This document shows positions 2,038-62,331 of a stretch of DNA of 64,000 nt, one piece after another. The stretch is from the NCBI GenBank assembly GCA_039621445.1, contig CP154954.1, forward strand, positions 47,037,847 to 47,101,846, given 5' to 3'. The notes under the pieces were generated by a model, which did not search any database, was not told where the DNA came from, and worked only from the letters and a program-made list of their open reading frames with translations. The position numbers and the translations under genes are program-made. The DNA comes from Euglena gracilis (Eukaryota). Each line of letters starts with the position of its first letter. Position 1 is the stretch's first letter.

Positions 2038-2081
<44 letters not shown>

Positions 2082-5000: not shown

Positions 5001-5197
5001 CACTCCCACACACCCACACACCCACACCCAAACAATGCACACAGCACACACAAAGCACACACAGACACGCAGACACACACACACACACACACACACCACA
5101 ACACACCCGCACAACACACCCGCAACACACACACACACACAACACACACACAAGACACACACACACACACACACACCCACACCCACACCCACCCACG

Positions 5198-5232
<35 letters not shown>

Positions 5233-5711
5233 CACAGCACACTCCACACACACTAACACACACACACACACACTACACAACGGTTCTTTCATCTGCAGGC
5301 GGCCAGCGGGCGGGCTGAACTGCGGCTCGGGTTGCACTCGGCACCACGCAGCGCACCGGCGCACGCCATCCACCACCAGCACAACGGGGTAGGCCAGCAG
5401 GGTGTAGATGCAAACTGTTGCCACGGCCGTCCCACTACCTTGATCCAACCAGGTATTATTTTAAAGCAAAAATTTCAAAAAATAAGGGTTTTTGAGGCAA
5501 TTGTTCTTTTATTTTCCAAGGGCTGTTCAAGGGCCTTCCGGGCATCGAAGCGGTCGAAAATCAAATCAAAAAAAATCGAAAACACCATTTTTGAGTTTGA
5601 GGTGGATGGAAGAATTCACTTCCAGGGACCCTGGGAGGGACGTCCCTGGCCGCCAGGCACCAGAGCCACGGCCGGTGGCAGGGTACGTGTCTGTCTGTGT
5701 GCGTGTGTGTG

Positions 5712-5754
<43 letters not shown>

Positions 5755-8700: not shown

Positions 8701-10629
8701 TTTTTTACCGACCCCCGGGGGGGGGGTCACTACCTTTTCAAAAAAAAACCAGTCAGTCACTTTTTTGGGAAACCAGTCAGTCACTACCCCCCTCCGGGGG
8801 GGGGGGGTAGGCCACTCTGGAATCCAAAGGAATTCTGACCAAAAACATGAAAAAAAAGGCCAAAAAATTCCGGCACCTTTGGCGCCGGGTCAATTTAGTG
8901 GTTTTTTGCCGACCCCCCCCCGGGGTGGGGGGGAGAGGGTCCGGGCCAAAAACCAGTCAGTCACTCTGAAAAAACCAGTCACCCCCCGGGGGGGGGGGGT
9001 CTGACAAAGTGATTGTATGGCCTGGACAGATTTCCGACCCACCCATGGACCAATTGATACCGAAAGCTGGTCAGCACCTGATACCCGACGCGCTGTCCCT
9101 GGCAGTCGTGCTGGCATTGTATGGCGATAGCTTCAACCACTGCCTCACTCTGGTTGCGCGCCGCCTCGGAAAGAATGGCATCAGGGTCGGGGTGGAGGGG
9201 AATGCCACCAAGGATATGGGATTCATGGCGTGTTCATGACATACTTCCGCCATTCATCATGGTTTGGTTGACCATATTTCAGTGCGGTGATGGACTGATA
9301 AAGAAATAAGAACATCAATTACCCCAAATATTTTACCCCAGATATTACCGTGGTTTTGTAACTTAACTGACTTTCCAGATGGGGTTGGCAAAAGTGATCG
9401 CTTGAGGTTTGAGTCCAGCAATCCTCGTGACATCGAGATAAGACATGTGAGGGGCAAAACACAGGCATGTGATGCATTCTCTCCAGCGCAAACCAGTCCG
9501 GCCTGTGATAATGAAGGACAAATGAAAACCAAAAGCCATCAAACAGGCACAGACAACATGGTCGTATTTTTCATGTGCCAACAACAGAGGGGGGAGGAAA
9601 CAGCAAGACTCCTTGACGTATGCAATGCAAAATTGCACAAAAATGCAATGAAACTGCAAGCAGTAATTCGTGAAATTAGCAAGCATGTAAATTCCTTTTC
9701 AACCTCCTCGGGATGAAGACTTATCTCTGTTGGAGAGGACTTAAAAAATATCACCTCTGCTGGGGAAAGTTTTTCATGATGAACAATTTTTCATAAAATA
9801 TAATATTTTCATTATGCACCAGAGAACATATATTGAAGAAACATTCACACGGTTTTCAACAAAAAAAACCACAGAAGCACGAGCAATATAACTCTTGTAC
9901 CCCCAAAAAATCCAAGCAAATAAAAAAAACAGCAAAATGACACAATAAAAAGTTGATTGCCCAAATGCACACACTTCAGCATCAAGCAGCTTGAAAATGG
10001 TCAATATCTGAGTACGCCGCACACCGAGCCCCGGGGTCCTGGGGGGTCCTGGGGGGTGCTGAGTGGTGCTGGGGGTCGTTGGGTCAATACAAAGAGCCCA
10101 GAAAGGGACCCAAAATAAAACTCCAACATATGATGGTGTTATTTTTAAGTCCGGGGTCCAGGGGGTGGGAGCCCCCCCCCCAGTAGTTGCCGAAGGAGCC
10201 TGGAAATCCACAGTGAGTGAGTCTTGGGTCCTGGAGGGGGGAAACTGGGCATGACTCCTGGGTTCTTTGGTACAAGAGCAATTTCCGTGCACAATTACCA
10301 CACAAAAATTGTGAAAATTGGGAGGTCAAAATATGCAAAAAATGCACATTTTCCCCAAGATTTTCAGAATGCAAAAAATGCAGATCATACATCTTGCACA
10401 TTCCCCCCCCCAGGCAAACAGCAACAGGACACCCCTCAAGAAAAATCGTGCTCTGATTCCACGTTGAAAACCCTGGCCAACACCTCGATGGACACATTGG
10501 GTTGAGGCATCGCACCTGCCTCCTGCCACACTTCGCAACGTCCACCATAGGGTTGGGGAAATCCTCGGCCTTCCAGGTGGATGCGCGGCCGAGGAGGAAG
10601 ACGACCAGGAGGATGGCAGCAAACGCCAT
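858..10629 (-). CDS. Multi-exon gene: signal peptide + TPM (MOLO-1/TLP18.3-like) domain + hydrophobic segment + RING-H2 finger; putative membrane E3 ligase
   Basis: Exons join in frame: 10629-10516 MAFAAILLVVFLLGRASTWKAEDFPNPMVDVAKCGRRQ; 9502-9488 AGLVC; 9188-9078 DPDAILSEAARNQSE...VGYQ; from 8180 VGLAVLQRMD. Later exons: ~7030-6910 KAFATVLGARWGVSHGTCNDGIILLVSASDRVVW; ~6685-6584 RTAGGAQAALL...AFKQGQYDS; ~3690 RLRRIQRE; ~3470 QMCSICLEEF; ~2430-2393 LGCGHRFHRQCI; from 1728 QEWMGKGESPTCPMCRE; ~1370 LQYYMARF. Some internal boundaries and the last exon (stop at 858) are tentative. Confidence 0.85.
1729..2392 (-). other. Nonconventional intron splitting the RING finger
   Basis: Removal gives HRQCI-Q-EW. 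No GT-AG ends; +4..+6 TTG pairs with -8..-6 CAG. Confidence 0.7.
1853..2082 (+). mobile_element. Possible 3' end of a non-LTR retrotransposon with (GTT)n tail
   Basis: A GC-rich coding-like ORF end (stop at 2028) is followed by a short UTR and about 14 GTT units, all set in AT-rich intron sequence. Confidence 0.4.
2533..2832. mobile_element. hAT-like MITE with 8-bp TSD
   Basis: TIRs CATGCTTGTGCTTA / TAAGCGCAAGCCTG; perfect TSD CTGGGGAA at 2525-2532 and 2833-2840. Confidence 0.85.
4975..5280. repeat. Degenerate (CA)n microsatellite in an intron; similar tracts at 5690-5820 and 6750-6895
   Basis: Directly visible CA/TG runs between exons. Confidence 0.95.
8688..9024. mobile_element. CAG..CTG MITE with internal AACCAGTCAGTCAC repeats
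   Basis: TIRs CAGGACCATACAAT / ATTGTATGGCCTG; four internal motif copies; no clear TSD. Confidence 0.7.
9189..9487 (-). other. Nonconventional intron following a 15-nt microexon
   Basis: 5' GCTGGAGAGAATGC pairs with 3' GCATTCCCCTCCACCCC in the +4/-6 register; removal restores AGLVC-DPD. Confidence 0.85.
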
Positions 10630-10730: not shown

Positions 10731-11430
10731 AGCCTTCCTAGCACATTGGCCCCATAAAGGCCCCCGGAGTCCATTTTGTGAAAAAAATAATAATAAAAGG
10801 AAGGCAAAAAAAACCCTCAAAAATCAAATTCTCCAAAATTTTCATTTTGGAATTTTAGCACTTGCAAATTAATCAAAAAATTGGATAGTGCAAAAATATT
10901 TATGCAATTTTCATCTGCAGGTCCCATGGGTGGGTCCCATGGGCAGGTGCCGTGGCAGGCAGGTGGGGGGGGTTTGGGGTGGGCAGTGCTATAGCATCCC
11001 CCCCCGGTGCCGAAGGCCTCCATTGCACAAGGCACCCCCCTCCAGGGTTGGCAAAAAAGAACCTGATCCGCACCCCCCCCCCCCAATAGCTTTGTCCCTT
11101 TCAAAATTGTCTGACCGATGTTTTTGGCCCTGCCCCCACAAAGTTAATTGGGCAGTGCTCAAAACCATTCGGGACTGCTTTAAAATTTCAAATGCTGTTT
11201 TTGAAGGGGTTTAGGCAGGGCAGGGGGGGTACAGGACACCCCATCCAAACGCTGAACGTCACCTTTGGGGGGTGAGTCCACAACGACCAAAAGCCATCCT
11301 GATCTGCCCACAGAGACTGGCTTGTCGGGAACAGTCAGGGGAAAAAGTTTGCGCTCTTTCCTCAAGCCCCCGCCTCCACTTACAGCCCACAATGAAACCA
11401 CACACATCCCACATGCAGAGGGGTGCTGGG

Positions 11431-11695
11431 CAGGCTTTTTTTTAAGCCCCCCGGGGGGGGGGGGGGGGCCCCCCCCGGCCGGGGCCCCCCCCCCCCGGGG
11501 GGGGGGGGCCGGGACCCCCCCCCAAAAATCGGGCCCGCTAAAGGCGATTTCCAAAAATTTTCGGCGCGAATTAGCACAAAAAGTATGGGATTAGCACAAA
11601 AAGTAAGAAGTTGTGGGTGGGGGGTCCGGCCCGGACCCACCCACCCACCCCCCCTCCCCCCGGGGGGGGGGTCTGCTGACTTAAAAAGAAGCCTG
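11431..11695. mobile_element. hAT-like MITE with 8-bp TSD
   Basis: TIRs CAGGCTTTTTTTTAAG / CTTAAAAAGAAGCCTG; perfect TSD GTGCTGGG at 11423-11430 and 11696-11703. Confidence 0.9.
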
Positions 11696-12296
11696 GTGCT
11701 GGGATGTGCACACCAAACAGTAATTATCATTTTGCGTTTTCTGCCATCATCTGAAAAAAAAATGAGTTCTACAAAGACTACACCAACACCGCAAATTCAC
11801 GTCGTCTGTTCATCGTTGGAAATTCACACTGTGCTGGCACAAAAAAAATTCGTCCTCAGATTAATCAGCATTGGGGAAGTCAGGAGAAAGATAATTGAAA
11901 GGAACCTTTCAATGCGAAATAACTATGCAGAACATTAAAAAATTTGTCACTGGTTTGTGCGCGGGGGCCGAAGTGCCTTCTGTAGTTTGACTTTTGTGCA
12001 GCATCAAATGGCACCGCCCATCGGCTTCAAACAATTTATTTTTTGAAAGTAACACACTTTTGAGATAACTGGCACTTTTTTCTAAAATAAAAGGTTGCGC
12101 TTTATTGAAAATGCTTAACGCTTAACAACAGGACAGCTAAGGGAACCGAACAGGGCCATTCGAATTTCTTTGTCCAGGTCCGGCAACAAGGCCCATCACG
12201 CAAAAATTGATTTGGAAATGAAATTGATAGCAAACAGGGCAAGCCAGTGTTAAACTGCTGTGACCCTCTGGACTGTTCAGGTGTCTTGTGGAAAAG

Positions 12297-15200
12297 TTAT
12301 GTGGCAGCAGCCAGCCGGTCCACCGTGGCCTGCAGGATTCGTTTCTGCAGCACGCGGAATCGCACACACGTCCGCACGTTGGGCGACAGCTGCGGGTCCT
12401 CCAGCAGCGCGAGGTCCTCGGCGACGGTGGTGGGGTAGGCGGCGAGCAGCTGCCGGCAGCGGGCCAGGACGACCGCCTCGGGGAAGCCCCGGCTGTGGTC
12501 CAGGCTGTGGAGGGCCCGGGTGCTGGCAGGGCGCCGCCTGCAACCCGGCCCGGCAACCCGGCCTGGCAACCCGGCCCGCCCAAAGAAAAGGGACCTCTGC
12601 CCTCCCGGAACTCCCAGCCCATCCCCAGTGATGCGGTCTGGAGGCATCCGCCAGGGGGCACCTGGAAGTTGAAAGGGGGGGGGGGCTCTCCAAAGAGGCG
12701 ATGGGCATCCTGAAAATGCATTTGGTTGCTGCTGAGAGATGTTGCATGAGTATCGACTTTTGTGCGAGCTGCTGACAAACGAAGGTGGTATGAACCATTT
12801 TGACTCCCAGAAACCACCCCTCCCAAATGCAGCCCCACCCACCCCAGGGTCTTTCATTCTGGCTACGAGATGTAGACTCCCAAGGAAATGCCGACAGGTG
12901 AAGCTTGGAAGTCGGAAGGCATCAGACGCGAAAATTCTCATTTTGTTTCGCTGGTTACTAAAACTTTCTGCGAAGAAAACAACCTTCAGTGATTGAAAGC
13001 TCACTATGAAAAGTTGCATGAGAAATAATGATGATAATAATAATAATAATGCCTTTTGGATTGCAGAAATGAAAATGGAAATGGGAAAAAAATAGAAATG
13101 AAGAATGGAAAATTTGCTTGAAAACGTATCCATGGTGAATCTGAGACCCAGAAAAATGTCCGATTGTTCTGCAAAACGAAAGAATGGCATATTTTTAGAG
13201 GAGAGAATTTGTGTCTCTCTTTTGGAACTGTCAAAGATAATTTACTGGAACTGAACCCGCCCATCAGGTGTCGCTTTTTTGCCTTTCCACGGTTTTGCCC
13301 ACAACAAGATTGATCTGAACTGGAAATAAATGCTGGTCATGAGGGAAATATAAAAAACATTAGGTTGAAAGAAGCTGGAATGCAATTCCAAATGCTGCGC
13401 TTAAAAATTTCCTGAAAAATAATCTATCTGCAAGTCCCAAAAGACGCAAGACAGGCGTCCGGGGGAGATAACAAGGAAAATAATGATGCGAAGTCAAAGT
13501 GGTGACCTCTGATTTTGCTTCCTGTCGCATTTGCACATACTGTCAAGCAAGGAACGAATGGCTGCCTGAAACCTCAAGAGGCACCAGGGATGAGGCGCCC
13601 ATCCACCATTGAGGCTGCAACAAATAACCGGCAAGGCTCTGAGTCAAAGCCAATCCTGACTTGATCTGGGTCTTGTGTAAAGAAAAAGGCGCACACTCAC
13701 GCACTACCTCGGGCCTGCACGAGTGTCCGAGTGAACTGCTCCAAAGCTGAAAAATTTGGTTGGCTCTGGCTGGGAAAAAAAAAAAAAAAAAAAAAGAGGG
13801 GGGGTGGCGGGGGAGGGTGGGGAGGGGGCGGGGTGGGCGTAATGGGGGGGACGGGTGCGGGGGGGGGCTGATGGGGGGGGGTTTAGGGGGTAGACAGGGG
13901 TAACTTCCCTCTGAGTGATCCCTGTCTGGAACCCCAGGGGTTTTTGTGACAAACTTGTCGCTTCCACGTCAAGGGTCAGACTCAGAGCCTCTGCCTGTTC
14001 AAGCTCGGGCTACAAACGACAGAAATGCCCCCCAGGCTGTACTTGGAGGTGTTGGAGTTGTGTTGGTGTTGTACTTGGAGGGTTGACTCTGGACAGGGGC
14101 TAAATTGTGCTTGAGCTTCCGCTGTAGATCCTTGGCCGAGACCCAGCGCCACCTGTGAGTGGGTGGGTGATGGCACTGGGGATGGGGCAAGCCAGAGGTT
14201 GAGAAAGCGAAGCACAACGGGCTTCAAGCCAAAAGGCCAAAAGGCTGATGAAGGAAAGGCGGGCGATGGCGGGGTCATGGACCTGCTGGCCAAGAATGTG
14301 GAGCAGAACTCGGCAAGGTCCCGGACCCGCTCGAACACGACCACGTTATCGTACGGGTTGTGGTCCAACACAAATCCGTAGGAGAGGAAGAGTACCCGGT
14401 TGGAAAACTTGCCATATTGGACGGTGACCTCCTGGCTGCAGGGCACCCATCATGACTACGCAAAGGCTAACATGGATATTGCATGAATGTGCATATTATT
14501 CTAAAGAAAAATATATACATACATTCATATTCAAAATAAACACTTATATGGGGGGGTGACATTTTCCCCCCAAGGTCCTGGGCTAATTGAAAGAATAGGG
14601 TTGGGGTCGCTGAGCTCTTGTCTCTTCAGAGGAAGAGCGAAGCTGGCCACTGGGGAAAAAGGGGGGGGGAGAACACCCCTACCTGACTCATCTACCGAGG
14701 GGCTGGGGGGGGTAGAACCCCCCCCTTGGTAGGTGATGAAAACTGCAGATCATCATCAAGACCCCAGTCCCGTTCCCTGGACAGTTTCCGGATCACCTCC
14801 ATTTGAACCAAACTCCCTGCCAGACCCAAGCCATTCACCCGTGAAGGGGTCCAAACTGGGTAGGATTCACCAAATCCGACTCTGTCATTTCGCAGGGGTG
14901 AGATTCGGTCAAAGAATCAATTTTTCGAAAATATCTCGAGAAAACGTACATTATCTAAGTGTCGGCAAGACGAAATGTGCCCCTGGAGGCCCTCTACTCT
15001 ATCGCTCCCCATTTGCCATTTTGGCCGCCGACACGCCTGGCCTGTGTTCCAACGCGCTTTTTGGCAAAACAGCCATCTTGGGGTGATTTTTGGGCCGTTA
15101 TTTTTTTGGTAAAAAAACCTGATTTTTTCAAATTCAATTTTCTCGACAATGAAGCAAAATCAAAGGAAATGTTTAGAGACCAAAAATGAAGCCCTTTGAA

Positions 15201-17978
15201 TAGCCTATCCAACCATGCTTCAGTTTTCTCCCAACTCTTCGTGTAGCTTGAGCTGCCGCCATTTTTTGGCTAATTTCGGCCCATTTCATTTTTGGACTCT
15301 TTTTGGGGTCAAAAAAATCGCTGTTTCCATTATATCTCGGAAATGAAGCAAAATAAAAGGAAATGTCCAGAGACTGAAATTGAAGCCCTTTGAACGCCCT
15401 ATCTAATGGTATATTGGTTTCCCTGTAACTCCCCGCAAAGCCCGAGATATAGCTGATTTCACGGCCCAAAACAAGCTTTTGTTTTTGACATTTCGGGCCA
15501 AAAAAAGGAAACAATCAAAAAATTTTACTCAAGTCGATGTCTCTTGGCCTCCCGGACCCAGAAAAACTGTTTTCGAGCCGAAAATGAGCGTTTTTTGACC
15601 CCTTCATCCTGTTTTCGGCCCAAAACCCATGGCCCGGGGGGGGGGGGGCAGCCGGCGGCCCAGGCCGGGGAAACCCAAAGAGACGGCTTTGGGTAATTTT
15701 TTCCGATTTTTTCGACATTTTTGACCTGGAAATGACCCCAAATGCAAACCAAGGGCTGGGCCGGGCCGGGTCGGGTCCCCCTGGCTGCCACAAGCCTCAA
15801 ACATGTAAAGAGCTCAGCACTACACAAAACCTGGTTAGGCGTAACGTTAAGCATAACTCCTTTGCCCTAACTAAAATAGATGCATGCATGCATGCATGGG
15901 AAAAAACCAACAAATGACACCAGAAAGTGTCGAAATACAATGTGTTCTGTTTGTTTTCACCAAATGGAGTGCTCTGCTAGGCCCCTTTGTACACCCGCGC
16001 TCCCGGTCACCAACTGGACGGCAGGCTTGTCTGAGGAATCGAATTTCAAGACAGCGTTGGCGACGAAACTGTGGTTGGCAAATTCACGCAGCAGGATGGC
16101 AAACGGAACTTACGCTCCGTAGGGGGACCCGTGGGACCTCCGTCACTTTGCATGGAGCTGCATCAGACTGCCAGAAGGGGTGGGGTAATTTTCTCAAAAG
16201 ATCCAGAAATTTTGCAAATGGCATTGGTTTTTTGGGGGAAGGGAACACCTCAAAAAAAGACAACGATGGCAAAGAACATACAGTGACAGAAATTTTGGCA
16301 AAATACCCAAATTTTGCCATAATTTCTTTTCTCGTAATTTTCTCACTCCGTCGGTTTCCGACGCCCTCTTGGGAAGCCGCAAGCACAATGCTGGGACGGT
16401 CATGCTTTGACTTCTCAGAGTCAATGAGGACGCACTGTGTCTTAGTGGTCAGCAAAACAACCGTCACACATAAACTCGTCACAGCGAACGCACTTACGGG
16501 CTGTGTGTGTGCTACATTCACAAGGATGTGTGGGCTCAGCACGAAGGGATGCTTTGAGGCAGGGCGGTTCTTAAGCAAATAAAAAAAACTCCGCTGTCAC
16601 AGCACATTCAATGAAAAATCCATAGAGAAACATCTTGCACCTCAGCCATTTCGGAATCTGTCAGAATACGCTTGCGGCCACGTTTTTCATGCCGTAATAT
16701 GAACCATTGTCCTTCCAAAATTTCAAGCAGCGATTAACTGTACTCCAAGGAAGAATAATCTCTTTGAACTCACCCTTGGCATGGCGATCAATAGCTCCTC
16801 CAATCCCATGTTGGCGTGCCCAATCTGTGACGGTTTTTGTGTAACCGTCTGTCCAAACATGAGGTTTTGCCTTGGAAGATGCAACCTCATCCAGCACAAC
16901 ACGTGGGACGGCATGTGAATTCATGGCTAAATTGGAGAAAATGAGAAACTGAAACGTACTTCTTTTAATAAGCAGAGGGAAGAAAGAAATTTTTTAGGAA
17001 AAAACCAGATTTTGCCAAAATTTATTTTGCCAAAATAAAAATTTTGCCAAAAATTTTTTCTCGTATTTTTTTTGCCGTAATTTTTGTTTTCCGTAATTTT
17101 TAGCCACACTGTAAACGAAAAAATACATATTCTCGAGGGTGATGGTATAAAAACCCCCAAAAATCACAAAAAAAAATCCTAAAAATCACAGGAATTGTTT
17201 CCCCCTTATTCTGGGGGCATCTCTGCCCAAAAAAAACTCTGTCTGTCCAAAAAAAATCAAAATTACTCACTCCCCAAAATGGGACAATGAGAAAACAACT
17301 CAAATACTTCAAACCCGGGTTCTTCTTAAGGACTGCTGGGGGGGGGGATGGAAAAAGGTTATGGTTTGAAAAAAGGTGCTGGCTGGACCTTCTCTGGGGG
17401 TGGGTTTGGGGGGGGGCAGCCAGTTGGCAGCTGGACACGCCTGGGACCCGAAAACAGGCAAAAAAAATCCAAATCCAGCTTGGCCGGATTTTAGCCAAAA
17501 TTCTGAGGCAAGAACCCAAAACCCCTCAAAAATACCATCCTTGACCCCCTTTTTCAAAAATTTAGCATTTTGTGCCGAAACTTCCAGCGCTGCTCCGCCA
17601 GGCTGGTAACAACTTTCAGTGGACCCCAGGGTGGATCCACAGCCTGGCTGGGAGCTGCTGGATGGGGAAAACATTGCTGGCTGGATCCCCCTCTCCTGGA
17701 TCGCCCCCCTCCGGTTGTCAAAACCCCTGCTTCGGACACAGACCGAGACAAAAACGTTTGACAGAAGAGAAGAAATGATAGAATGCTTGGGGCGAATGAA
17801 TTTCGAGAAGAGCAGGAAGTTACACGGGGAGATGGCAAAAGAGAGGGAGAAGCGCACATTCTGCAAAATTAAAAAAACACAAAAAATAATTATTTATTTA
17901 GTTATTTATTTATTTATTCATTTATTTGTTTATTTGTTTTATTTATTTTTTCATTCATTTTTTCATTTATTTATTTAT

Positions 17979-21000: not shown

Positions 21001-24000
21001 AAAAGGGGCCAGGGGATGCCTTCAGCTCCACGGTGCAGACACGCAGCTTAAAAAACCCCCTGAGGGCCTGTTCAGAAAGATTACTTACAAAATGGCCAAT
21101 TGTTTGTGGGGTCCTGGTCAGAGAGGTTGGACACTGGAAAATCAGGGCCGGTTGGAAAAAGGATGGCACCCGCCTCAAGGGGGCTGGCTGGAACCCGGTC
21201 TCAACTGGCCCAGGTCCCTCCGGTTTTATATTGGGGCAGATCTTTCAAGACCCCCACAGGGGTTTTACATTTGGGAGGGGGAATGAATGGGGGGGAACCC
21301 AAACTTCTGGCGATTGTCTGCCCTTTTCCATTTTGTCCCTCGTAGCTCTTTTGTGTTGCTTCCAACAAAAAATACCTCTCCGAAGACACCCCGATGTCTC
21401 GCTTTCGGTCGTTTCGAGTGCCAAGGCCACTGAATCACCAACATCTGAGGAGTCAGGAGGTGATGGATCCGAATCTGATAACTTATTTTGGGAGGGTTTT
21501 ATATTTGGTTGCCAAACCAAACGCCCCAGGGGGGTTTTATACTTGGGGGGTTTGTATTTGGGGGGTTTCTGTTTGGGGGGGGTTTACATCCAGGGAGCTC
21601 CGGAAAAAAATTCATGCAACTAGGGGCTTTTGTGTTTATTTACCTTTTTCCATTTTGTGTGTCGCGATTTCCAAGGGAGAACGTTGTGTTTCCCTCTTGC
21701 ATCGGGGGCCGCAACAGGTTTTTCAGGTGGCTGGTGCAAATCATTCGACTTAGTCTTGGACCTCCTCCCCCATTGACGATCTCTCTGCCCAGCGGCCGTT
21801 CAGGCAGCTGAAGTAAGGGATATTGAGCTTTGTTGGCTGTCAATAAATCAATAGGTCGGGTATAGGTTAAAAGAAATGGGTCGAAAAGGGCGACCAATCA
21901 GTGTTTTTGGGAAATGCACTTTGCATTTTCATTTTTTTTTTGAATCCAGGGTTTTCCAGCTCCTTCAGATTAAATTTCTCGTTATGTTAACTCGGTTTTG
22001 ATATACATTTTGATGACATATGACGTTGGGCACATAAAAATTCTGAAAGGTATGAATTTGTTTGCCATTTTTTCAAAAGTCACAAAAGTTTGACAAAACG
22101 CTTGGGGCGGGAGGGGGGAATGCGTTCTTTTCTCCTTTGTGTGTGTGTGTTTCGATTTTTGCAAATTTTGTGGGTTTGCTCTGTTTCAATTCTTTGTGCA
22201 ATTTCTTCCCCTGGCAATTTTTCTTTTTTTTTGCTGTTTTTTTTGTGAAATTTTTTTTCAGCTTAAAAAAATGTGCATTTTGTCCCCGATTTCCCCCGGA
22301 GGAAGGGCCCAAATAATTTCAGAAGTTTGTGGTGAAAGTCCAGTTTCAGACATCAGTATCAAGGGCGACCAACTGTTCAAATTAGGCGGAATCAAACACA
22401 GCCTGTGCTCAGGCCCCAGACCCTGCCAGCATTCTTCTGCAAGGCGTCGCTGAGTCGATCGCAGGGCGGTGGCCCTCAATTGAAGTGTAACGCTGAGCCT
22501 TGGAGGCCCACTGAATGACAAAAGAAGCTCCTGGACCTAACCAAGAAAGCGACTTTGCCGAAAAAGGAAGGTAGCTTGGCAGTTGGAATGCTTCAAAATC
22601 CACAAATCACAAGCTGGTGGTTATGAGGGTGGCACAGAGAGGGACGTTTTTAGGATGATGACTACCACAGAATTGCCTGAAAAGTTATTCATTTGCTGCG
22701 CTTCCTGGAGGGAGAAATTCCGACCACTTGTTCCCAGAAGAAATACACTGAAAGGGAAGAAAAAAAGAGAAGGCTCGACTTTCAAAATACTCTGTGTGGT
22801 TTTTGTGGTATTATCTGTGTGGTTTGGAAAATAGAAGTGTGGCAGCAGCCTGGAGAAAGCAGCGCGCAAGATGTTCGCATCCTGGAGGTGCTCAAGCTCC
22901 TCTGCCCCGTACTGAAATTCAGGCATACAGCATTCCCGTGGCAACCCAGCAAGATACAATGGCAATTCCCCTCCCTGAACGTCATAATCCCCCCAAAAAA
23001 GCAGGTGCAGGGACTGCTGGCATAGACCAACCTCTGGAGGGGAGTCTCGTGACCTGGAGTGCCTGGGAGGCAAGAACTGTCCCCAGGGAGAGGGTTGGTG
23101 CCTGTCTGGTCATGGGCCCCAAAATGAGCCGTTTCTGGGCTTCCGTGCCTTCGTCACAGGAGTGCTGAAGGCACTTTTGGCACTTTTGGCCATGTGCTCC
23201 CCCCCCCCGAGGGTTGGATCTGGGGGCCTTGGACGGCCTGCCCAGCAGCCGAGAGCCGAGGTGGGTGGGCCATGCCTTAAAACCCAGCCTGGTGGGGGGC
23301 CTGGTTCTGATGAGAGTGGAAAATTTAAATGCAAAGGCAGCCATGCACAACTGAGTTCCAGTCCAATGCACCACGCGAGACGAACCCGTGTGAAAAAAAA
23401 TTGGAGTGTTTTAAATTTCCTTCACCGCATCGGCCTGGTCTCCCCGACAGATTTCCCTGGGATTCCAGGATGAGGAGGAGGAGGACTGACTGGAGCCCAC
23501 TCCCGGCTTTGCCGCCGGTGGAGAAGGTCGAGGGCCATCAGGGCGAGCCCAGGGGTGGTTTTGGACTCAGGCTCCCGGATGAACATGCCCTCAGGAACCG
23601 CCAACAGCACCTGCAAAAGGAGTGAATTCCAAAAGGGCTCCTCGGAGATGATGATGACCCGATTGGTTTGGGACCTCATAGCTTCCCAGGATGTATGGGA
23701 AGCTATGGGGGGGGGGTCGGACCCCCAACAAGGAGGGGTCCGACCGCGAAACTGAAGGGAGCTGAGAAAATTTTTGGTTTTATGGACCGGCAAAGGGCCG
23801 GAAACCAAGCCAAAATGTACAAAAATCCCTGACTTTCTTTGAATCTAAAATGGTCGTTTTTGAACACTTTTATGGGGAAAAGTGTTAAGCAGGGGTTTTC
23901 TGAAGGACCCCGGGGGGTCCTGTGCAGGGGATTTCTCAAGGACCCTGGGGGGGGGGTCCCGCGGCCAGCTGGAAAAAGGTGCTTGTTGGAACCACCCCCT

Positions 24001-31200: not shown

Positions 31201-31994
31201 GGTGCACAGATTCTGAAAACCCAGAAATCAAACTGGGTTTTTACGTGTTTGGGGAGCGTTATATTTGGGGGGAGGGTTACGAGTAATTCTCTGGAAATTA
31301 TGGTGATTTTTCAAAATTTTAATTTCCTGTATTTTATTCAGATTGTAAATGGCAGAGTCAAAAGTAGGGGGGGGGGAATCTCACCAATTCAGAGCCTTAT
31401 CAGCTGGACACCCCCACACCGTAAATGCCTAACTTATCTTTTTGTCCATTTTGGTCTTTTTTTGGACTTTGGACTTTTTCAGGGTGCCTGGGGGGGCACA
31501 TATCTGAAATTGTGTGCCTGGTGCAAAGTGCCAGAAGCAGGGGTTTTTTTTAGTCTTGGACCCCCCGGGGGGGCAGGGCAGGCGGGTCTAGCTGAGCCCC
31601 CCCCCCCAGGTCCTTCAAGGGGGGTGGGATATAAACCCCCCTCCCACTTATAAACCCCCCGGGGCTTAATGGATCCGGTTTGGTTGGTCGGCCGAAGGGG
31701 GGGGGGGTTATAAGTGGGGGGGTTCATAAGTCCCGGAATTGTTGGTGAAAATCCGACCCTCAAAAATGACCCCGAAACCCCCCCAAATTGGCAATTTTCG
31801 TCAAATTTGGACAAAAATGGCATTTTTGCCGATAGTCGGTCTCAAAAAAACTGCCAACAAATCAACTTTCGGTGGTTTGCGGCCGAAAAAAAATTGTCCC
31901 CGGGGGGGGGGTTAAGTCCCGGTTTGGTTGGTCGGCCCGAGGGGGGGGGGGTTAAGTAGGGGGGGGGGGGGTATAAGTGCGAGCGGGGGTTTAC

Positions 31995-32432
31995 CAGGGT
32001 TCGATATAAGGACAGGTGGGGGGGGGGGTGGTCCGGCCCCCCCCCCCTGCGGACAAGGAGGGGGGGGGGTGGTGGGGGGCACCCCCCCCCACCTAAACAG
32101 GTGCGCGGTCAGGGTGGCCGAATTTTCGGCCCGGCGCGAAGCGCCGGGCCGAAAATTTTTGACCCCCCAAAACGACCAAAAGTGCCATTTTGGGCACTTT
32201 TTGGGCAAAAATGTGCCAAAAATGCAAAAAATTTTCGGCGCGAAGCGCCGGAGGAAAAAATTGACCCTTTTTGGGGGGGGTCAATTTTTGCCCCCGAGGG
32301 TCGGTCCGGACCCCCCTTGCAGGTGGGGGGGGGGTGGTCCGGACCCCCCCCTGCGGGCCAGGAGGGGGGGGGGGTGGGGGGGGACACCCCCCCCCACCTA
32401 AACCATGTACGCCCTCCTTATATCGAACCCTG
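31995..32432. mobile_element. Young hAT-like MITE: perfect 18-bp TIR, 8-bp TSD
   Basis: TIR CAGGGTTCGATATAAGGA; TSD GGGTTTAC at 31987-31994 and 32433-32440. Confidence 0.92.
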
Positions 32433-32825
32433 GGGTTTACTTTTCGGTGCTGAAGGCACCGAAAATTTTTTACAAGGGTGCTACTTTTGGCATTTTCGCG
32501 ATTTTTTGGATATCCCCCATGACCCCTGACCCTCAAGGAAGGTTTCGGTTTTTTAAAAAAATGGTTTCACTGGCTGTCCAGGGGTTCACGAGAAAGTCCA
32601 CTGGCCAATTTTTGCTGGTTGCAGTCCAGCCCCCTCTCTCAAAGGGGGTCTGCTAGGATGCAGTGAAATCTTTTATGGGGGCAGACATGTTTCTGGGCTG
32701 AAAAAAAAATATCTTTTGGGCAAACAGATATCCACAAATTGAGTTTCTTTATGCTCCCTCCACCATTCAAGAGAAGCAAGCCAAAAACAAGCTTGTGCCT
32801 AGATACGTGGGCTGCTGGTGTTGCC

Positions 32826-32951: not shown

Positions 32952-33223
32952 CAGGTCAGGCTTTTGCTTAAGGACCCTGGGGGGGGGGTACTGGCTAGCC
33001 AATCGGCTAGACACTGGAAAAAGTGGACTAGCTAGACCCCCCCTCCCCCCCGGGGGGGGTTTGGGGGTCCCCCAGACTGGAAAAAAAATTTTCCTCCGAC
33101 GCACAGCGCCGAAAGAAAAATGAGGGGGGGTGCTTCAGCACGGAATCTCCCCGGGCAGTCAATTAGGGGGGGGTTGAAAATTCTTCTCAAAGGGGGGGGG
33201 GGCATTTGGTCAATTAGGCGGGG

Positions 33224-39703: not shown

Positions 39704-39854
39704 TTTGCGGAACCACGAACGCACCCCCCCCTGCCTACAACTATAGGCCCCCCCGGGGGCCAATACCCTCACCCCCCCCCTATTTGGCTTATGGCCGGGC
39801 CCCTTCAGACCCCCAATTAGCCAATTGGGGGGGGGACAATTAAGGGGGGTGGGG

Positions 39855-42794: not shown

Positions 42795-44735
42795 TCAGTG
42801 TGAACAGATTTCAACGTCTTGGAAATTGACTAACTCTTCCTCAGCTTTTGGCCAATATGGCCCAAATTTCCCATGCGGTCGAAAGTCCCTCTCACCTGAG
42901 AACAAAAATGGGGGGATTATCAAAAGCCTCTGATAGAAGGAGAGACCTGATGCGCAACCCGGTGTCCAAGACACCAGGACGCTCCCGAAGGAGCGTTGGG
43001 GCACAGTTCTTAAAATCTATTTCCTGGGCCCAACGCTACTTCCATTGGAAACTGTTAGCGTTGGTTGATTTCCAAGCTGGCGCCAATAATTGTCAGTCGA
43101 TTTCCAAGACAGAAATTTGTTGCTGGCCAGATTCAACCGCTTCGGGGTCAAAAAAATGGCTTCTCAAATTATTTTGAAAATGTCAGGGAATCAGAGGAAG
43201 CCTGGGGGGGGGGGGAGTGAAACCCTGGGGACCCTCTATCACCCCATGCAGGGCCACCTGCGTGCCTGGCCCATTTTGCGCTGCTTTCGCCAGTTTCAGC
43301 TTGGTCATGAAAAGAGCTTTGAAAACATGCAAAAAAGCATTGCACAAGCAATAAATGAATGGCTACCTGCAAATGAGATCACGAACAATAATAAATTTCC
43401 TGCAGATGGAGAGGTTCCATTTGCATTTCCAAAAGGAGTGAAATACGGTGATGACGGTATTGATGATGGACAACAATGACGAACAATCCTCAAATCTCGT
43501 GCTTCTGAGAAGAGAAAATGGAATTTCCCACAAGTGCAGATAACCTTGCTAGCTATGTCCCTGGAGAGGTTTCCCCAGAAGACAAATAAAAAAACGATGC
43601 ATTGTTTGTTGGTTGCTGGGCGCGCAAATCATCAGATGGGTCAGCATCGCGGACTTTGTCCAACGAACAAAATAGAAACCAGCCATTTCGGCGGAAAATT
43701 GGGAACGACGCCTGCCGTACACGTGACCTATTGTTGAGAAAATGTGTTCCAAATTGGCAGAACTTGCCAAACAATTGCAAAGGCGTAAGCCACCCCTGTC
43801 AAACCCATAGGAAAACCGGACATCTTGCCTGCCAACCACCAAGCAACAGGATCACCTTTTTGTTTGATCAAGGCAGGATGAAATGGTGGGGATTCAGTCA
43901 AATATGCATTCAGTGCACATGCGATGTCTGACCCTTCTGCAAATTGATGAGCCAAATCCAGTTGTGCCGGGGTCAAACTCCTCCCAAAAAAATGGGCATC
44001 CAACTCATTTGCCAACAAAAAGAAGGAGCAATTTAAAATTTGTTTGCTTCTCTCCAAACCCAAATTATACCCTCCTGCTTTTGTGGGAATGCGTTCTTGC
44101 ACTATTCGACAGCCTCCACCAACGTTCCTTTTGTGCGTTGCATCAAATCCAACATTTCAACAACAGGCATTCAACACTTGCATAAGCCGTCGCCCAGCCG
44201 TCGGCAAGCCGCGTGACCCACAGGAAAATGACCCGAGCCACATCCTTGCAATGAAAAAGCAATTTCTCCATCAATCTCCCCTCCAGGTCATGGTCATTGT
44301 TGTGGAGGCTGTATTTTTGCCCATTTGAGGCTTTTTTCGCCAATTTTTGTCAATTTTGCCAATTTTGGATTTTTGCGACTGGAACCAACCCCAAAAAAAC
44401 CTTTTTCTTTCTATGTTCCACAAATCCTTTACAAAAAGTGCCTTGACACTGTACTGTTCAGGGGGGGAACAGTGAGGGGGGGGGGCATGGTATTAACACA
44501 CCAAATTAGGGATTCAAATTTCAGCATCATCCGAAATTAGGCATTTGCCACTCAAAATAAAGGATTGACACATGGAATTAGGAATTTGCTCCTCAGAATT
44601 GGGAGTTGGCACATTAAATGGGGAATTTGCCTTTGAAAATTCGGAACTGGCTACCCAAAAGCGGCGTAACAACATAAACCAGCTTCCGTCACACCGTCGG
44701 GCAGGCGTCGGGAAGCCGTCAACTGGCCATGGGCC
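42795..44735 (-). CDS. Probable exons of an unidentified host gene
   Basis: Non-repetitive, coding-like blocks with splice-like ends (e.g. LHNNDHDLEGRLMEKLLFHCKDVAR, QASFPIFRRNGWFLFCSLDKVRD); no recognisable domain. Confidence 0.3.
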
Positions 44736-46995: not shown

Positions 46996-49900
46996 GGTGA
47001 TATGACTGTTTTAACCATGTGGGACAATGAATTTTGCCATTTGGGGGCCATTGGGGTGGAAACCCAATTTTGGTGAAATTGGCCCTGTTTTGGAAATAGA
47101 GTACCGTGCACCGTGGAAAAATCTGATGAGCACCGCCGGTCGTCTGTTGAAAAGAGCTTTCGATCGAGGGGTAACTTGGCACCCTAACGTTGCACGCAGC
47201 CTGAGATACGCTCGCGATCGTCGATCGGCCAGAATCTGAGTTGAAGTTTGTGGTAATTTTTGGTGATTTTTGGTTTAAGATGCTGAATAAACCTTACAGA
47301 AACGATTTTTCTCTTTGAATCAACGACCTGAGGGGTCTAGGGGGGCACAAGAATTGTGAAATTAGGATTTCCCTGCAACAAGAAAGAAGGCTGCCAGGCG
47401 GCGTGGCTGAATTTGGTGATCATCACCAGTCGTCTGATGAAAAGACCTTTCGATTGAGGGGTGAGTTTGTACCTGGACGATTGACACAGCCCGAAATACC
47501 CTCGCGATCGCCGGAATTTGGTGAAATGCAAAGGGCGTGACATTGCCGATCAGTGGTTGGAGATTGGTCCTGGGAGGGTTTTTTGACCGAAGGGTGGGGA
47601 CGTGCCGCTTTAAACAAAGGGACAATTCACGGAAGCATTTCCTTTTCCATGACTTTTTCTTCATTCTTAGGCCGCCATTCAAATGACCTGTAAGATGACT
47701 CGGAAAAATTTGTCAAAAAAAAAGAGAGTTCAAAGAATTCTACTAAAAAAGGGGCGGCGGACGCCGGTTCTGTCCTGAACCCAGCGTCCCGGATGCCGGT
47801 TCCGTCCTTCGGAACCGGCGGAACGGGCCTCTGGGGAACATTGTGAAGAGAGAGTGGCATCCAAATGACCCAAGCATATCAATAGGCACCCCCAAAAAAA
47901 CTCCGTTGCAAAACACCCTTGAAGTGGAAGGAAAACCCTTTTCTTTTTCTGCAAATCAGCTTGATTCGTGAAGTTGCTCATTGAGGGCTTTTTTTTTGAG
48001 TGATGGAGAAATTCAAAGATTTTCCAACATTCCAATTCCAAGTGCGAAAAAGCACGCGCTTTTCGCTGGCCACGATTGACCGAGAATGCCTCCACCACCG
48101 TGCTGCTCTGCCCAAAATTCCAGGGGTTTTGGAGGTCACGGATCAGCACCTGTTGTGCTGCACATTCAAAAACCTTTGCAAGTGGCACACTTCAATCTGA
48201 GACTTTCTTAATTCCTTGGCACAACGATGTAGCTTCCAAGCCAAGAAGGAACAACGGTCTGACGAAAACACCCGCCTGGTCACATTTTTTTTCCACGCCT
48301 TGATGGCGACGGACCCATGGCGATTGACTTCACCATTTGTCACACCCTAAATTGTGCCCTCGTCGCAAAAGCAGTTCCCACGTTTCAATGTCCATCAAAA
48401 TATCACCCCCAACCACCAAAACGGTGAAGTTCACCGGTGGAGTCCCCCCGTACAACCCAACCTCCAAAGGGAGAATTCTCCATCCAAGGAAGAACATCTT
48501 GGGGAAATGGTGCAGTCAGGAGGCCAGGTGCCCGGGCGGTTCAGACCGGAAATGTTGACTTCCCAGAGTGGGGGGAGGAGATCAGGCAGTAACTTGCAGG
48601 ATTTTGGTAGGGTGGTGACTGAAATTTCCGGCCCCTGAAATTTCGCAAAATTTCACGATTTTTTACTTTTCTTTCTCGCCACTAGCCAATAGCAGGGTGT
48701 TGACTGAAATTTCCGGCCCCTGAAATTTCACGACATTTCACGATTTTTTACTTTTCTTTCCGACCACCTTTCACGAATGTCACCACCCTGGATTTTGGAC
48801 CCACCCTCCCCCCCCCCTGGGTGAAATTCACCATTTGAAACTTCACCGGGGGTCCGGACCCCCTCTCCAGCGTTGACGTCTTTTTTTTTGCATCTGTGAA
48901 CAGAAGCCCGGCACCTGCCCTGGGTTTCGTGGACATGATCACGGATTACGGGGCATTAATTGGTTAATCAACGTCCTGATAATCGTGAACAACCTGTTCA
49001 CGATCATCAGGCGTCCAAATAAGCATGGCTTACTTCCTCACCCCACAATAGGCGAAGAACCCCCAAAATTTTGGTGTCCAGAAAATGTGGAATCAAACAC
49101 AGAGTTTTAAGCGTGACATTTAAGGCTTTTTGAAAGAATTTTTCATCCACTGCACAACCTTGCCATCTTCCTTGAAGAAATGTTCCCAACCCGGACATTT
49201 CTTCTTTCTGCAAAAAAAAGAAGCGATTAACTGGGGGGACAAGCGATTAACTGGGGGGACAAGCGATTAACCAGTTTTCGGTTAATGGTGGTTAATTGTC
49301 CCCCCCACAAACGAACGATTAATTGGGGGGGTCACAAGCGATTAACCGTTTTCGATTAACCATCCTACCTTGCACCGCTGGGTTGGTCAAATTTTGCATC
49401 CCTCACCCCCCCCCTCAAAGTGTCCCCCCCAAAGTGGCCAAACTTTTGGCAAATTTTGGTTTAGCCCCCCCAAAGTGGCCATTTTCCTTCGGCGCCAAGG
49501 CGCCGAGGGCCAAAATTCACCCCCCAAGTGCCCCCCCCCTCAGAGTGGCCATTTTGGGGTCCCATGATGCCTGGAGGGTGGCATAATGGGCTTTTTTTAA
49601 AAAAGCATGTTTCAATTTGAGTTTGAATAAACACATTTTTGAAAAAAAGACACAAAAAACATAAAAAAAAAGGGGAAATTTGATTGAAAAAAACTTGTTA
49701 CAAAACACCCAAACCATACTTTGAACGTTCAAAAACTGCCAAAAATGGTAAAAACATCCCCCCGCAAAAATGCAATTTTATGACTTTTTTCATTTTTGTG
49801 GAAAGAGGTTTTGGCAGAAATCACCCAAAAGTTGCCAAAAAATGATTGAAAATATGCATTCAAAATTTTTTTCCGCCAAACCTTGGACGTTTTTTTATAA

Positions 49901-51312: not shown

Positions 51313-54300
51313 CCCGGGACCCACGTTCCTCTTGACACTTAAGTTTTTTGAAGCTGCCTACTTGATGAGGGGTCAGCCCCATCGAGCTTTTCGCACCTCC
51401 CAAATGGAGTAATGTTGGGGGGGGGGGCAATCAATGCGCAAGAAACAAACTTGACAAAGGAGGTTGATGATGTGTCGCAAAAAGATATCCCTTTTTGAGA
51501 TGCTGACTTGTGACAGCTTTTGGAGGTGACATCACATCTTGAGAACCTGGACAGAGCATATGATGACATGACCTCACCCTCCCCTCAAAGTGGCCACCCT
51601 CCAGACACCCATTGGGGGGGTGGTCAACATTTGGCCTTCGGCGCCCACTTTGAGGGGGGGTAAACCAAAATTCGCCAAAGAAAATTTGAGCATGTGGACA
51701 AAATGGCTTTTGGGTCTATCTTGCTTGGTTAACTCCTGAACGTCAGGGGGTGGACATAGGTGTAGGAACAATTTTTCCCCGGGGGGGGCGAGCCAAAAAA
51801 TTTTCTTGGCACAACCAAAATGAATTTTTCTCTGTCCTCCTGGCCCCAAAGGGGCCGAGACGCTGGCGTCTCTTTGAAGCCCAATGGAGCCCAGGTACAG
51901 GGGGGAGGGGGGGTCCCGGGCCCACCTGTTCACTTCCGAACTGAACTGGACATGTTGACTTCCCGGAGGGGGGGAGGGGGGGTCCGGCGCCGAAGGCGCC
52001 AAAATTTTTTTGAAAAAATGCCCTTTTCGGTGTTCGCCCGTCGTTCCGTTTTTCGGTTTTTCCCCGAAGTGATCAAGCACATCCAGGTACACGGGGGGGG
52101 GTCTCAGGACCCCCCTGTGCACTTCCGAAGTGAAGTCAATGGGTAGAACCCCTTTGGAAACCTCCCAACTCAACCCAACTGTCGACTTTGCAACCTGGGA
52201 TGGGGGGGGGGGCGAAGGAGCGATTTTTTTCACTTTGCGCAAATTGTTTTTTTCATTGAAATTGACCTGCAGAGTTTCCCCAAACCCAGCTGGTCAAGAA
52301 AATGGAGGGGGGGGGGGACGCATGGGGAATCGGTTTGTATTCAAACAGCCAAGGTGAAAGTGGTTTGTGGGGTCCCAAAAAAAAAACAATTAGTATCAAA
52401 GGAGGGGAAAGGAGTCGGTTTGTGGCCAAAATTAGACATCAAGAAGTGCCATGGGTTTCAAGGAGGTGAAATGAGCATTTCCTCAAGGGCTTTATTTCGG
52501 CCGCCAAGGGCGGCCGAGACGGTAATGGCTTTTGCAATTTTATTTTCCAGAAATGTGATTTTGACTGGTAAGGTGGCTGCCGAAGGCAGCCGAGATGGTA
52601 ACGCCCTTTGAACCATTGATCATGGCATTGCAAAGGAAAAAATTTTCTTTCCAAAATCCCGGGGGGGGGGGGGCGGCCGCCCCCCCCGACCCCCACTTTC
52701 TACACCTGGGGGTGGAGATCATCCCCCCTTTCCTGCTCCAACTGACCCTGAGGGGGCCACAGAACGCCTTTTCAGGTCCAAGACGGCCGGAGGGGGGCCT
52801 TTTCAGGCTCGCTCGCGCCGTACTCGCACGTCGCACGTGCTTTTTTTGCGAGTGTCGCCCATGTCGGCGCGCTGTCCTTTGCCGTCGAGATGGGACACCG
52901 CGAGCCGTTGCTCACGCCTCTCGTCTCGCTGGCCTTCCAGAGGGGGCCCTTTTTCTCATTGATGGTATGGCGCAACCTTGGAGATCAGGCGGTGAACTTT
53001 GGGTTTTTTGGGCGGGACCCCCCCACCCCCTCCTCCTCATTGGAAATACCATGCCCCCCCCATATAAGCCCCCCCCCCCCCTGGCCGGCCGAAGGCCGGC
53101 CCTTTGGCCGGGACCGACCCCCCCATATAAGACCCCCCCCATATAAGACTCCCCCCTGGGATTTTGGCTCCCGAGGGGGGGTCTTATATGGGGGGGGGGC
53201 ATGGTACATGGACGAACTTCACCAGTGAACTTCACCGGTGAACTTCACCAGTGAAATTTCTCCATGAAATTCCTTTAGGGGCGGAGCCCCCCACCCCCCC
53301 CCCCCCAACCCCTGCCTAACCTCCCTTGTCTGTTGTTTTTCCGTCTCTCACCTCGGTTTGGAGCATTGGATCCGGAATTATTTGTCGGAAATAGACACTC
53401 ACCCCCACCTACCCCCGTGTATCAGGGTCATTTTTCATTGAATTCCCTTAAAATGCCCTGAGTCATGGCACAAAGTGGGGCCTCCAAACCAAAGCCGGCA
53501 GTCAAAAAAAAAACAAAAAAAACAAAAAAGGTTTTTTGTTTTTTTTGTGTTTTTTTAAAAAAAAACAAAAAAAATGCCAGCGGGGGTATGGTGGAAAATT
53601 TTTTTTCATTTTTTTGGGCAGTTCCCAACATGATCTTGGAATTGTTGCATTTTTTTCTGTCACTTTTATAGCTATTTTCTCACGCCTGGCCGTTATGAGT
53701 CAATAAGGTCAATACAAAACCGAGGAAAGGGGGGGTTGCATGTGTGTGGTGTTTTTTTTTGAGTTTTTCCGTTGCCGACGACTTGGCGCTTGATTCGGCC
53801 GGTTTTTTTAAAAAAACCGTTTTTTTTGCCGTTTTTTTTCTTCAAAAAAAACACGTTTTTTTTTAAAAAAAACCGCCAGCTCTGCTCCAAACCCCCATAC
53901 CCACACCCCCTACAAGGCGGGGGGGGGGCGACAATCAGCCCATCCTGTGCGCATATAGGGTGATGATGGGCAGCTCCCCCCCCCAAATTGTCACCCCCCC
54001 CAATGGTTGCCAGGGAGAGTGCCATTTGGGGGGGGGGGTGCCATTTGTGACATTGATGGGTCACACTGTTTACCCATAAAATAAGTCGTGGGGCGGGGGG
54101 TGCCCAAGGGGGGGCAAATCCCACTGTGGGACCAGGAAAAATTTGCCGGGCTGGAGACCACCCCCAAAACCGCGATTACCACATAACATGACCTTGCTAA
54201 CCATTTTGGACACTTTGGCACTTTCATATTTGGTACCCAGATGCTGCCTCATGCGCCCCGAAGCGATGTCTGAGACGCACGCCGGTTCGGCGGGAAATTT

Positions 54301-61560: not shown

Positions 61561-62160
61561 AAAGTCGGATTAGCGTCGAATCGGGTGCCTTTTTTTTTCG
61601 TGATGTTTCTGACCAATTCCGGGCATTTTTTTTCCCAGCATTGAAAGTCGGATTAGCGTCGAATCGCGTGTCTTTTCGTGAGGTTTTTTTCAGGCGAAAA
61701 AGACGGAGAAAGACGTTCAGACGGTGTCGAATTGTCGGAATGGTCTTTTATTCGAGTCGACCTTGCCAAATTCATTGATTGGAGGTCGGGCCGACCTGGT
61801 CGGCCCGACCTCCAATGGTCGTAACGGCCAGGTGGGACGACTATGGTCGGCCCGACCTCCAGGATCTTCACAGCCAATCATCCGCCCAGGGCCCATTTTT
61901 GTTTCATATCTCTGTTGAAGAAAAATTGCAAACACCCAGCAATGAATGCCGGGCCCTGGGGAGCAGGTTTGTGGCCTGGGGGCTGGGGGGTGGCTGGGGA
62001 GTGTTGGCTGTCAATGACACTGGGGTTGGGGACACGGGGGGGGGGGGGCTCTGGCTGCAGTACGTCGGACAGTTGCACCCTAAAATTTTGGCTTTAGTTT
62101 GGTTCCAGGCCTTGTGACTTTTCAACCAATTGAGCTGGAGGAGGAATTGAATTTTTGGTA

Positions 62161-62331
62161 CTTGTTCGCTGCACGACCGCCCGAAATTTTTCTAAGTCGG
62201 AAGTTTTAGGGTTATTGAAGGAGTAGGGTTAGGTGCGCGCATGGCCATGTTGCGCAACATGGCCATGTGCGCACCTAACCCTACTCCTTCAAATAACGCC
62301 ATAATAAACTGGCGGTCGTGCAGTGAACAAG
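62161..62331. repeat. Foldback palindrome
   Basis: 62215-62292 is a 78-bp palindrome with one mismatch; outer 21-bp IR at 62161-62181 / 62311-62331. Confidence 0.9.

Follow-up and report, generated by a model that had tools for sequence, protein, structure and literature searches.

Short CAG-ended elements with 8-bp target-site duplications in Euglena gracilis DNA: hAT-like MITEs as a candidate source of nonconventional introns

The nonconventional introns of euglenids have posed two standing questions since the 1990s, that of their origin and that of the machinery that removes them. In their published splice signature, 5'-N3CDG-/-CH'GN5-6|R with a terminal stem, the spacers have been established experimentally, strictly 3 nt on the 5' side and 5 nt, 6 being tolerated, on the 3' side; a purine is preferred at the start of the exon (PMC12501133). 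An origin from MITEs (miniature transposable elements with inverted repeats), together with repeats at the intron junctions that resemble target-site duplications (TSDs), has also been published (PMC3935182, PMC11282704). Here we describe five short elements, M1-M5, which carry CAG-type inverted ends and perfect 8-bp TSDs in a 64,000-nucleotide stretch of Euglena gracilis DNA (assembly GCA_039621445.1, contig CP154954.1, positions 47,037,847 to 47,101,846 of the forward strand; hereafter the window), and we weigh them as a candidate source of such introns.

The 2014 paper that proposed the MITE origin stated that transposable elements had not yet been identified in euglenid genomes (PMC3935182), and in a 2024 review CAG/CTG are treated as terminal inverted repeats, and the repeats at the junctions are called TSD-like (PMC11282704); this review names no superfamily and no duplication length, and a whole-word search of it finds neither 'hAT' nor '8 bp'. 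A 2025 PNAS paper still calls the origin of nonconventional introns unclear. In E. agilis, a strain-specific and recently gained intron of gapC has direct repeats of eight nucleotides at its junctions, longer than those of the other introns studied, and the authors interpreted them in 2016 as the trace of break repair (PMC4770533). Elements of the hAT superfamily, for their part, are described as having inverted ends of 10-25 bp and 8-bp duplications (PMC3942097).

Five elements with CAG-type ends and perfect duplications

M1-M5, to which no strand is assigned, are 183-438 bp long and lack coding capacity, and in all five of them perfect 8-bp direct repeats directly adjoin the inverted ends. 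We hold with high confidence that they are hAT-like MITEs. M1, recognized by reading the sequence and by a scan, occupies 2533-2832 (300 bp; 2525..2840 with its duplications) and is bounded by CTGGGGAA at 2525-2532 and 2833-2840; its termini, CATGCTTGTGCT and CAGGCTTGCGCT, are paired at 10/12 positions, or at 12/14 in the longer form CATGCTTGTGCTTA and CAGGCTTGCGCTTA, and the left terminus begins CATG. M2, supported by reading, scan and folding, lies at 11431-11695 (265 bp; 11423..11703 with duplications), is flanked on both sides by GTGCTGGG, and has the termini CAGGCTTTTTTTTAAG and CAGGCTTCTTTTTAAG, which match at 11/12 over 12 nt in the scan and at 15/16 by direct reading. M3, supported by the same three approaches, lies at 31995-32432 (438 bp; 31987..32440 with duplications) and is enclosed by GGGTTTAC at 31987-31994 and 32433-32440, and its termini, CAGGGTTCGATATAAGGA, form a perfect inverted repeat of 18 nt. 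The original prediction had named these three elements, with their CAG-type ends and perfect 8-bp TSDs, and each was confirmed base for base.

The scan added two further elements. M4, at 48608-48790 (183 bp; 48600..48798 with duplications), has the duplication GATTTTGG and the termini TAGGGTGGTGAC and CAGGGTGGTGAC (TAGGG.../CAGGG...), which match at 11/12 positions. M5, at 53490-53884 (395 bp; 53482..53892 with duplications), has the duplication CTCCAAAC and the termini CAAAGCCGGCAGT and CAGAGCTGGCGGT, matching at 10/13; it is less secure than M1-M4, having been found at a looser threshold at which shuffled sequences averaged 1.8 matches.

The excess of such elements over chance was measured with a scan that required a perfect 8-bp duplication and at least 10/12 terminal matches under a low-complexity filter, run on the window and on 200 second-order Markov shuffles. 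Six elements in the window passed the filter, whereas the shuffles averaged 0.245 (maximum 3), an excess of about 25-fold, and three of these six have CAG at an end, for which the shuffle mean was 0.005; the filter itself removed M2 owing to its T-rich ends. The flanks give a second measure: among 173 CAG..CTG pairs with at least 10/12 terminal matches, flank identity ranges from 0 to 5 of 8, no pair shows 6 or 7, and M2 and M3 stand at 8/8, a bimodal distribution. Chance as the source of the elements is thus excluded.

All five elements are ordinary insertions in non-coding DNA of the window, and none is a splicing unit. M1 lies within a GT-AG intron, intron 13 (2927..2449), of a minus-strand gene for a protein with TPM and RING-H2 domains (the TPM/RING gene), as determined by protein mapping; a placement of M1 beside the 3' stem of a nonconventional intron of this gene was rejected on the same mapping. 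M2 is situated about 0.8 kb upstream of the ATG of the TPM/RING gene at 10629, and M3, M4 and M5 are in repeat-rich DNA outside every mapped gene. The statement of the original prediction that the intact MITEs do not themselves stand at exon boundaries is in agreement with these positions.

One end motif recurs in the window. CAGGCT..TTA[AG] is present at five ends, of which two belong to M2, one to M1 and two are solitary: CAGGCTTTTGCTTAAG at 32957..32972 on the plus strand, of the CAGGCT..TTAAG type, for which a partner end was not found, and CAGGCTGGGTTTTAAG at 23277..23291 on the minus strand, of the same type, which lies within the putative intron 22958-23491 considered below.

The interiors of M3 and M4 are themselves repetitive. 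M3 contains direct subterminal repeats at 32013-32098 and 32320-32403 (90% identical), which are composed of mini-hairpins of the form CAGG-G-run...C-run-CTG, and a palindrome of 37 nt at its centre (32121-32157). M4 contains an internal direct duplication, 48609-48682 / 48694-48767 (92% identical), which carries a second 5' end, CAGGGTGTTGAC, at 48693.

The splice code and the introns of the window

In the mechanism that we propose, a cut-and-paste transposase would make a staggered 8-bp cut in its target, and after insertion a perfect duplication of 8 bp would enclose inverted ends, 12-18 nt long, that start with CAG (or TAG, CAT, CAA). Were such an insertion to fall in an exon, cuts in the arrangement N3-CAG/CTG-N5 would remove it together with exactly one copy of the duplication, in both orientations, and the 8-bp duplication would explain why the two spacers total 8. 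The paired CAG/CTG-type consensus with spacers of 3 and 5 nt, on which the original prediction relied, is that of the published signature introduced above. When the N3/N5 cuts are applied to M1-M5 in both orientations, the element and one TSD copy are removed and the empty site is regained exactly in 10/10 cases, an outcome that follows by construction because the duplications are perfect 8-bp repeats; the arithmetic of 3+5=8 holds in this sense. The expectation that the inverted ends could furnish the stem was likewise borne out by RNA folds, in which the ends pair outward from CAG:CTG (M3, z = -9.5; M2 was folded too).

The natural introns with which the elements can be compared come mainly from the TPM/RING gene, which extends over 921..10629 on the minus strand and comprises 17 exon blocks and 16 introns in the mapping of EG_transcript_7233 (protein P0145). 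Its intron borders were set by forcing the joined translation to equal P0145 (528 aa, near-identical). Introns 1, 3, 6, 13 and 15 are of the GT-AG type (five introns), and introns 2, 4, 5, 7, 8, 9, 11, 12, 14 and 16 are nonconventional (ten introns). Intron 10 was left out of all counts: residues 253-259 of P0145 were sought between exon blocks 10 and 11 (3693-5304, minus strand) with two mismatches allowed and were not found, and they could represent a micro-exon split across junctions, a difference between alleles or paralogues, or an isoform. The register N3-stem-N5(6)|purine accommodates all ten nonconventional introns, nine with N5 and one with N6, a fit that is partly by construction, the register having been picked among 1-5 equivalent positions per intron; intron 5, which has a single possible position, fits the register with 11/12 positions paired. 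Intron 7 had been considered a breach of the N3/N5 geometry, a view that was dropped when it was found to fit in the register 6121..5926 with A for C at +4. Intron 8 (5674..5868, minus strand; GGT-CAGGGT...ACCCTG-CCACC|G) alone among the ten conforms to the strict code and uses CAG-CTG; the remaining nine use TAC-GTA, CAC-ATG, TGG-CCG, TTG-CAG, GGA-TCC and similar pairs.

Three further introns had been predicted with cuts placed 3 nt ahead of CAG and 5 nt beyond CTG, and they differ in how they are supported. The intron of the coatomer-beta gene (COPB) at 63204..63369 on the plus strand (AGC-CAGGCT...AGCCTG-GTGTT|A) is confirmed: a transcript-derived coatomer-beta protein from a close relative (P0001, label GGOE01019192, 97% identical) reads ...FVLP|KQDHK across it. 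The other two remain putative, being based on continuity of the frame and of SET-domain motifs. The first, in a SET-domain gene, at 14434..15979 on the minus strand (TAG-CAGAGC...GCCCTG-CAGCC|A), leaves the frame unbroken at its join (...ANHSF...VQRG|QEVTVQYG); the second, at 22958..23491 on the minus strand, has TTG for CTG, is placed by frame continuity (...REWAP|YLAGLP), and probably belongs to the same SET-domain gene. A homologue search with the SET-domain open reading frame (ORF) found none.

With these introns in hand, the idea that nonconventional introns derive from such elements can be weighed, and a series of findings in the window speaks against it. Only 1/10 combinations of element and orientation, namely M2 in the plus orientation, conforms to the strict code; the other nine fail through one terminal base, through a pyrimidine at the exon start, or through both, and the would-be exon start of M3 is a pyrimidine in both orientations. 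One-base departures in the terminal triplets are also common in the natural introns mapped here, 9/10 of the nonconventional TPM/RING introns not being strict. None of M1-M5 coincides with a spliced intron among those mapped in the window, and their description as candidate intron-generating elements gains nothing from their positions. In a test for remnants of a duplication, the 8-mer before the stem was compared with the 8-mer after it against a shifted-register null: the excess identity that had been predicted did not reach significance, with 30/96 identical positions in 12 nonconventional introns against a null of 24.2 (standard deviation 4.3; P=0.12) and 25/80 in the 10 protein-supported introns alone (P=0.15). 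The best-paired introns fare no differently, introns 5, 7 and 9 (11, 10 and 10 of 12 positions paired) having flank identities of 2, 4 and 2 of 8. Nor do introns cluster with MITEs, as had been envisaged, since blastn of 13 introns against the six elements returned matches in a (TG)n microsatellite and in G/C runs only. Both ends of the coatomer-beta intron read CAGGCT, and intron 8 carries CAGGGT; the end hexamers of the elements belong to these two classes. The predicted match of CAGGCT/AGCCTG between the coatomer-beta intron and MITE ends is real (M1 and M2) but not statistically compelling, and the sharing of hexamers as a whole (2/4 CAG-CTG introns) is not significant because CAGG stands at one end or at both in 5/13 introns (our own arithmetic).

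The tests within the window thus give the intron-source idea no support, and they weaken it without refuting it. As a refutation they are weak because the spacer bases inside an intron are free to drift, because only 12 introns were compared and because none of these looks young. The gapC intron of E. agilis, which is young, is an independent data point, and its eight-nucleotide repeats fit the model of an 8-bp duplication.

The alternative that survives best is that M1-M5 are ordinary hAT-like MITEs without any role in the birth of introns, the CAG..CTG ends and the sum 8=3+5 being coincidental and the introns arising in some other way, for example through the double-strand-break repair proposed in 2016 or from unrelated elements. 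We regard it as a serious possibility, though as one more apt to be wrong than right. It draws on the results just given, that none of the elements stands at an intron boundary, that 12 introns have no significant duplication remnant, that introns and elements are not homologous and that CAG-CTG is used by one of the ten nonconventional introns of the mapped gene, and also on the interpretation of the gapC repeats as a sign of break repair by those who reported them (PMC4770533). It has to treat as coincidence, however, the agreement of three independent features (the paired CAG/CTG ends, the symmetry of orientation and 8 = 3+5) as well as the presence of exactly eight-nucleotide repeats in a newly gained intron (PMC4770533), and the loss of a remnant is to be expected in old introns because their spacer bases drift freely. 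The full proposal, in which the nonconventional introns of euglenids go back to, or still are, hAT-family CAG..CTG MITEs inserted into exons and the 3+5 spacers reflect the 8-bp duplication, seems to us to have a little less than an even chance of being correct. We consider the intron-source idea plausible, testable and unproven, with prospects that are close to evenly balanced. Slightly better than even, in our judgement, is the joint reading, according to which M1-M5 are hAT-like MITEs with 8-bp duplications, are ordinary insertions at this locus and would represent the most specific 'MITE-like' candidate source of nonconventional introns so far.

Several observations on the window's genes complete the picture. 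Long (CA)n/(TG)n microsatellites (4800-5800 and 6750-6900) lie within introns 5 and 8 on opposite strands, and an apparent similarity between these two introns is due to them. P0144, a protein of 188 aa from an assembled sequencing run, runs unbroken through exon 15, intron 15 and exon 16 (1253-1813, minus strand), with about 92% identity over 187 residues (tblastn) and 99% over an 85-aa query; its source could be a genomic contig or an intron-retaining transcript. A Pfam search of 10 ORFs of the window gave weak RING matches only, and searches of the window for tRNA genes and Rfam families found none.

Superfamily assignment

hAT is the likely superfamily of M1-M5, an assignment made from the sequence on three grounds: the 8-bp duplications, the inverted ends of 12-18 nt and a transposase relic in the same window. 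The relic is a truncated, C-terminal fragment of a hAT-superfamily transposase at 43660..44167 on the minus strand, with a frameshift near 43790. At E<=0.001, a library of 1.84 billion proteins contains 23 relatives of its ORF at 43731-44156 (minus strand); among the 10 relatives scanned, six have the hAT dimerisation domain PF05699 and two have DUF659. In tblastn searches with seven relatives, the alignment spans both frames of the relic, the second frame reaching to about 43660, and this second frame alone gives a weak match to PF05699 (E=0.08). Long inverted-repeat arms (39854-42340 / 45570-46840), with internal units of about 197-199 bp, lie on either side of the relic region; they may be parts of a large composite element or satellite arrays in inverted arrangement.

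The terminal motif of hAT elements is YARNG, and the consensus of their targets is nTnnnnAn. The terminal motif fits M3, M4 and M5 and does not fit M1 or M2 (CAGGC), and the target consensus is matched in full by the duplications of M1 and M5, in half by those of M2 and M3, and not by that of M4. The 8-bp duplications, which the original prediction called typical of hAT elements, accord with the published description (PMC3942097).

An affiliation of the elements with another superfamily whose insertions also leave duplications of 8 bp (P, Merlin, Mutator-like or similar) appears improbable to us, and the points in its favour deserve to be set out. An autonomous element sharing the ends of M1-M5 was not found in the window, and when ends were sought for the transposase relic, 0/144 candidate pairs combined good inverted ends with a duplication. 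The terminal pentamer agrees with YARNG in three elements only, and the left terminus of M1 is CATG. A further MITE detected by the scan, at 62157-62335 (62149..62343 with its duplications; no strand assigned), has a perfect 8-bp duplication, GAATTTTT, around inverted ends of the GGT..ACC type, GGTACTTGTTCGCTGCACGACCGCC, which extend over 25 nt with two mismatches; it probably belongs to a transposon lineage different from that of the CAG-ended elements, so that the window holds a second lineage with 8-bp duplications, and such duplications are not tied to CAG ends. This element contains a long internal palindrome and is positioned some 0.7 kb upstream of the start codon of the coatomer-beta gene. 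To be set against this alternative are the hAT transposase relic within the same 64 kb and the agreement of the 12-18 nt inverted ends and 8-bp duplications with the published hAT description (PMC3942097).

The extent of the element group is a further point on which the reading as hAT-like MITEs is open to objection. Second copies of each element were sought within the window, and every element proved to be single-copy there; a search of metagenome contigs with the 18-nt end of M3 returned only eight single, unpaired matches, which were rejected as further copies and taken as chance because their similarity ends at 18-20 nt. The 'families' of MITEs in the original prediction were accordingly not borne out, although the end motif recurs at five ends.

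That the repeats might be chance matches or assembly artefacts we consider extremely improbable: G/C runs and low-complexity repeats abound in the window, and an unfiltered scan gave 14 matches at duplication length 8, several of them poly-G/C, but after the complexity filter six elements remain against the low shuffle mean given above, and M3 unites an 18-nt perfect inverted repeat with an 8/8 duplication.

Significance and comparison with known systems

The proposal that the nonconventional introns of euglenids come from MITEs dates from 2014, and the literature that we examined ties no transposon family, superfamily or duplication length to it. Our search, whose coverage of subscription journals was incomplete, found no link between hAT elements or 8-bp duplications (3+5=8) and these introns. 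A transposable-element origin in general, as assumed in the original prediction, was thus already in print (PMC3935182, PMC11282704), and so were the spacers themselves; the hAT assignment and the 3+5=8 rule are a sharpening of the published MITE hypothesis. The window supplies CAG..CTG elements that are intact and bear 8-bp duplications, a hAT relic and an arithmetic fit to the 3+5 spacers, and these three turn the general hypothesis into specific predictions that can be tested with genomes, transcriptomes and the published knock-in assay. If the proposal is true, such an insertion, whichever its orientation, would be removed exactly from the RNA and would be 'born' as an intron, and the origin of these introns could be tied to a transposon superfamily by name and to a rule in numbers. 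If the intron idea is wrong, the elements still provide a first concrete account of hAT-like MITEs for this region of the genome.

Among described transposons, the closest parallel is with the BuT2-derived hAT MITEs of Drosophila, which are likewise short and non-coding, with inverted ends of 10-25 bp and 8-bp duplications that differ between copies (PMC3942097). The presence of a hAT transposase sequence in the same region of the genome is another feature shared with hAT MITEs; the elements described here differ from the BuT2-derived ones in their euglenid host, in that no autonomous partner with the same ends was found, in their partial fit to YARNG, and in their interiors, which contain long G and C runs and nested palindromes. 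A hAT element acting as an intron also has a precedent in maize, where Giroux et al. are said to have reported in 1994 that Ds, a non-autonomous hAT element, is spliced from pre-mRNA as a de novo intron; Ds reportedly relies on spliceosomal sites and is removed imprecisely, without a cut that is set by structure and erases the duplication. Introner elements and spliceosomal introns derived from MITEs (Micromonas, Aureococcus, dinoflagellates, Fritillaria) resemble our proposal in that the ends and duplications of DNA transposons furnish the splice signals, an insertion being an intron from its birth (PMC11282704). Introners, however, are removed by the spliceosome and occur as many near-identical intron copies (PMC11282704), whereas here nonconventional removal is envisaged and no intron copy was found.

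The elements can also be compared with the euglenid nonconventional introns themselves. Unlike those introns, M1-M5 are cut out as units from none of the mapped transcripts, and the two also differ in their state: the elements have longer, near-perfect ends and intact duplications, whereas the stems of the mapped introns are short and degenerate, with no significant remnant of a duplication. In their design the two are alike, sharing the paired CAG...CTG terminal stem, the symmetry of orientation and a sum of spacers, 3+5, equal to the length of the duplication (PMC3935182, PMC4770533, PMC12501133), and the published young intron has junction repeats of 8 nt, which match the duplication length of the elements (PMC4770533).

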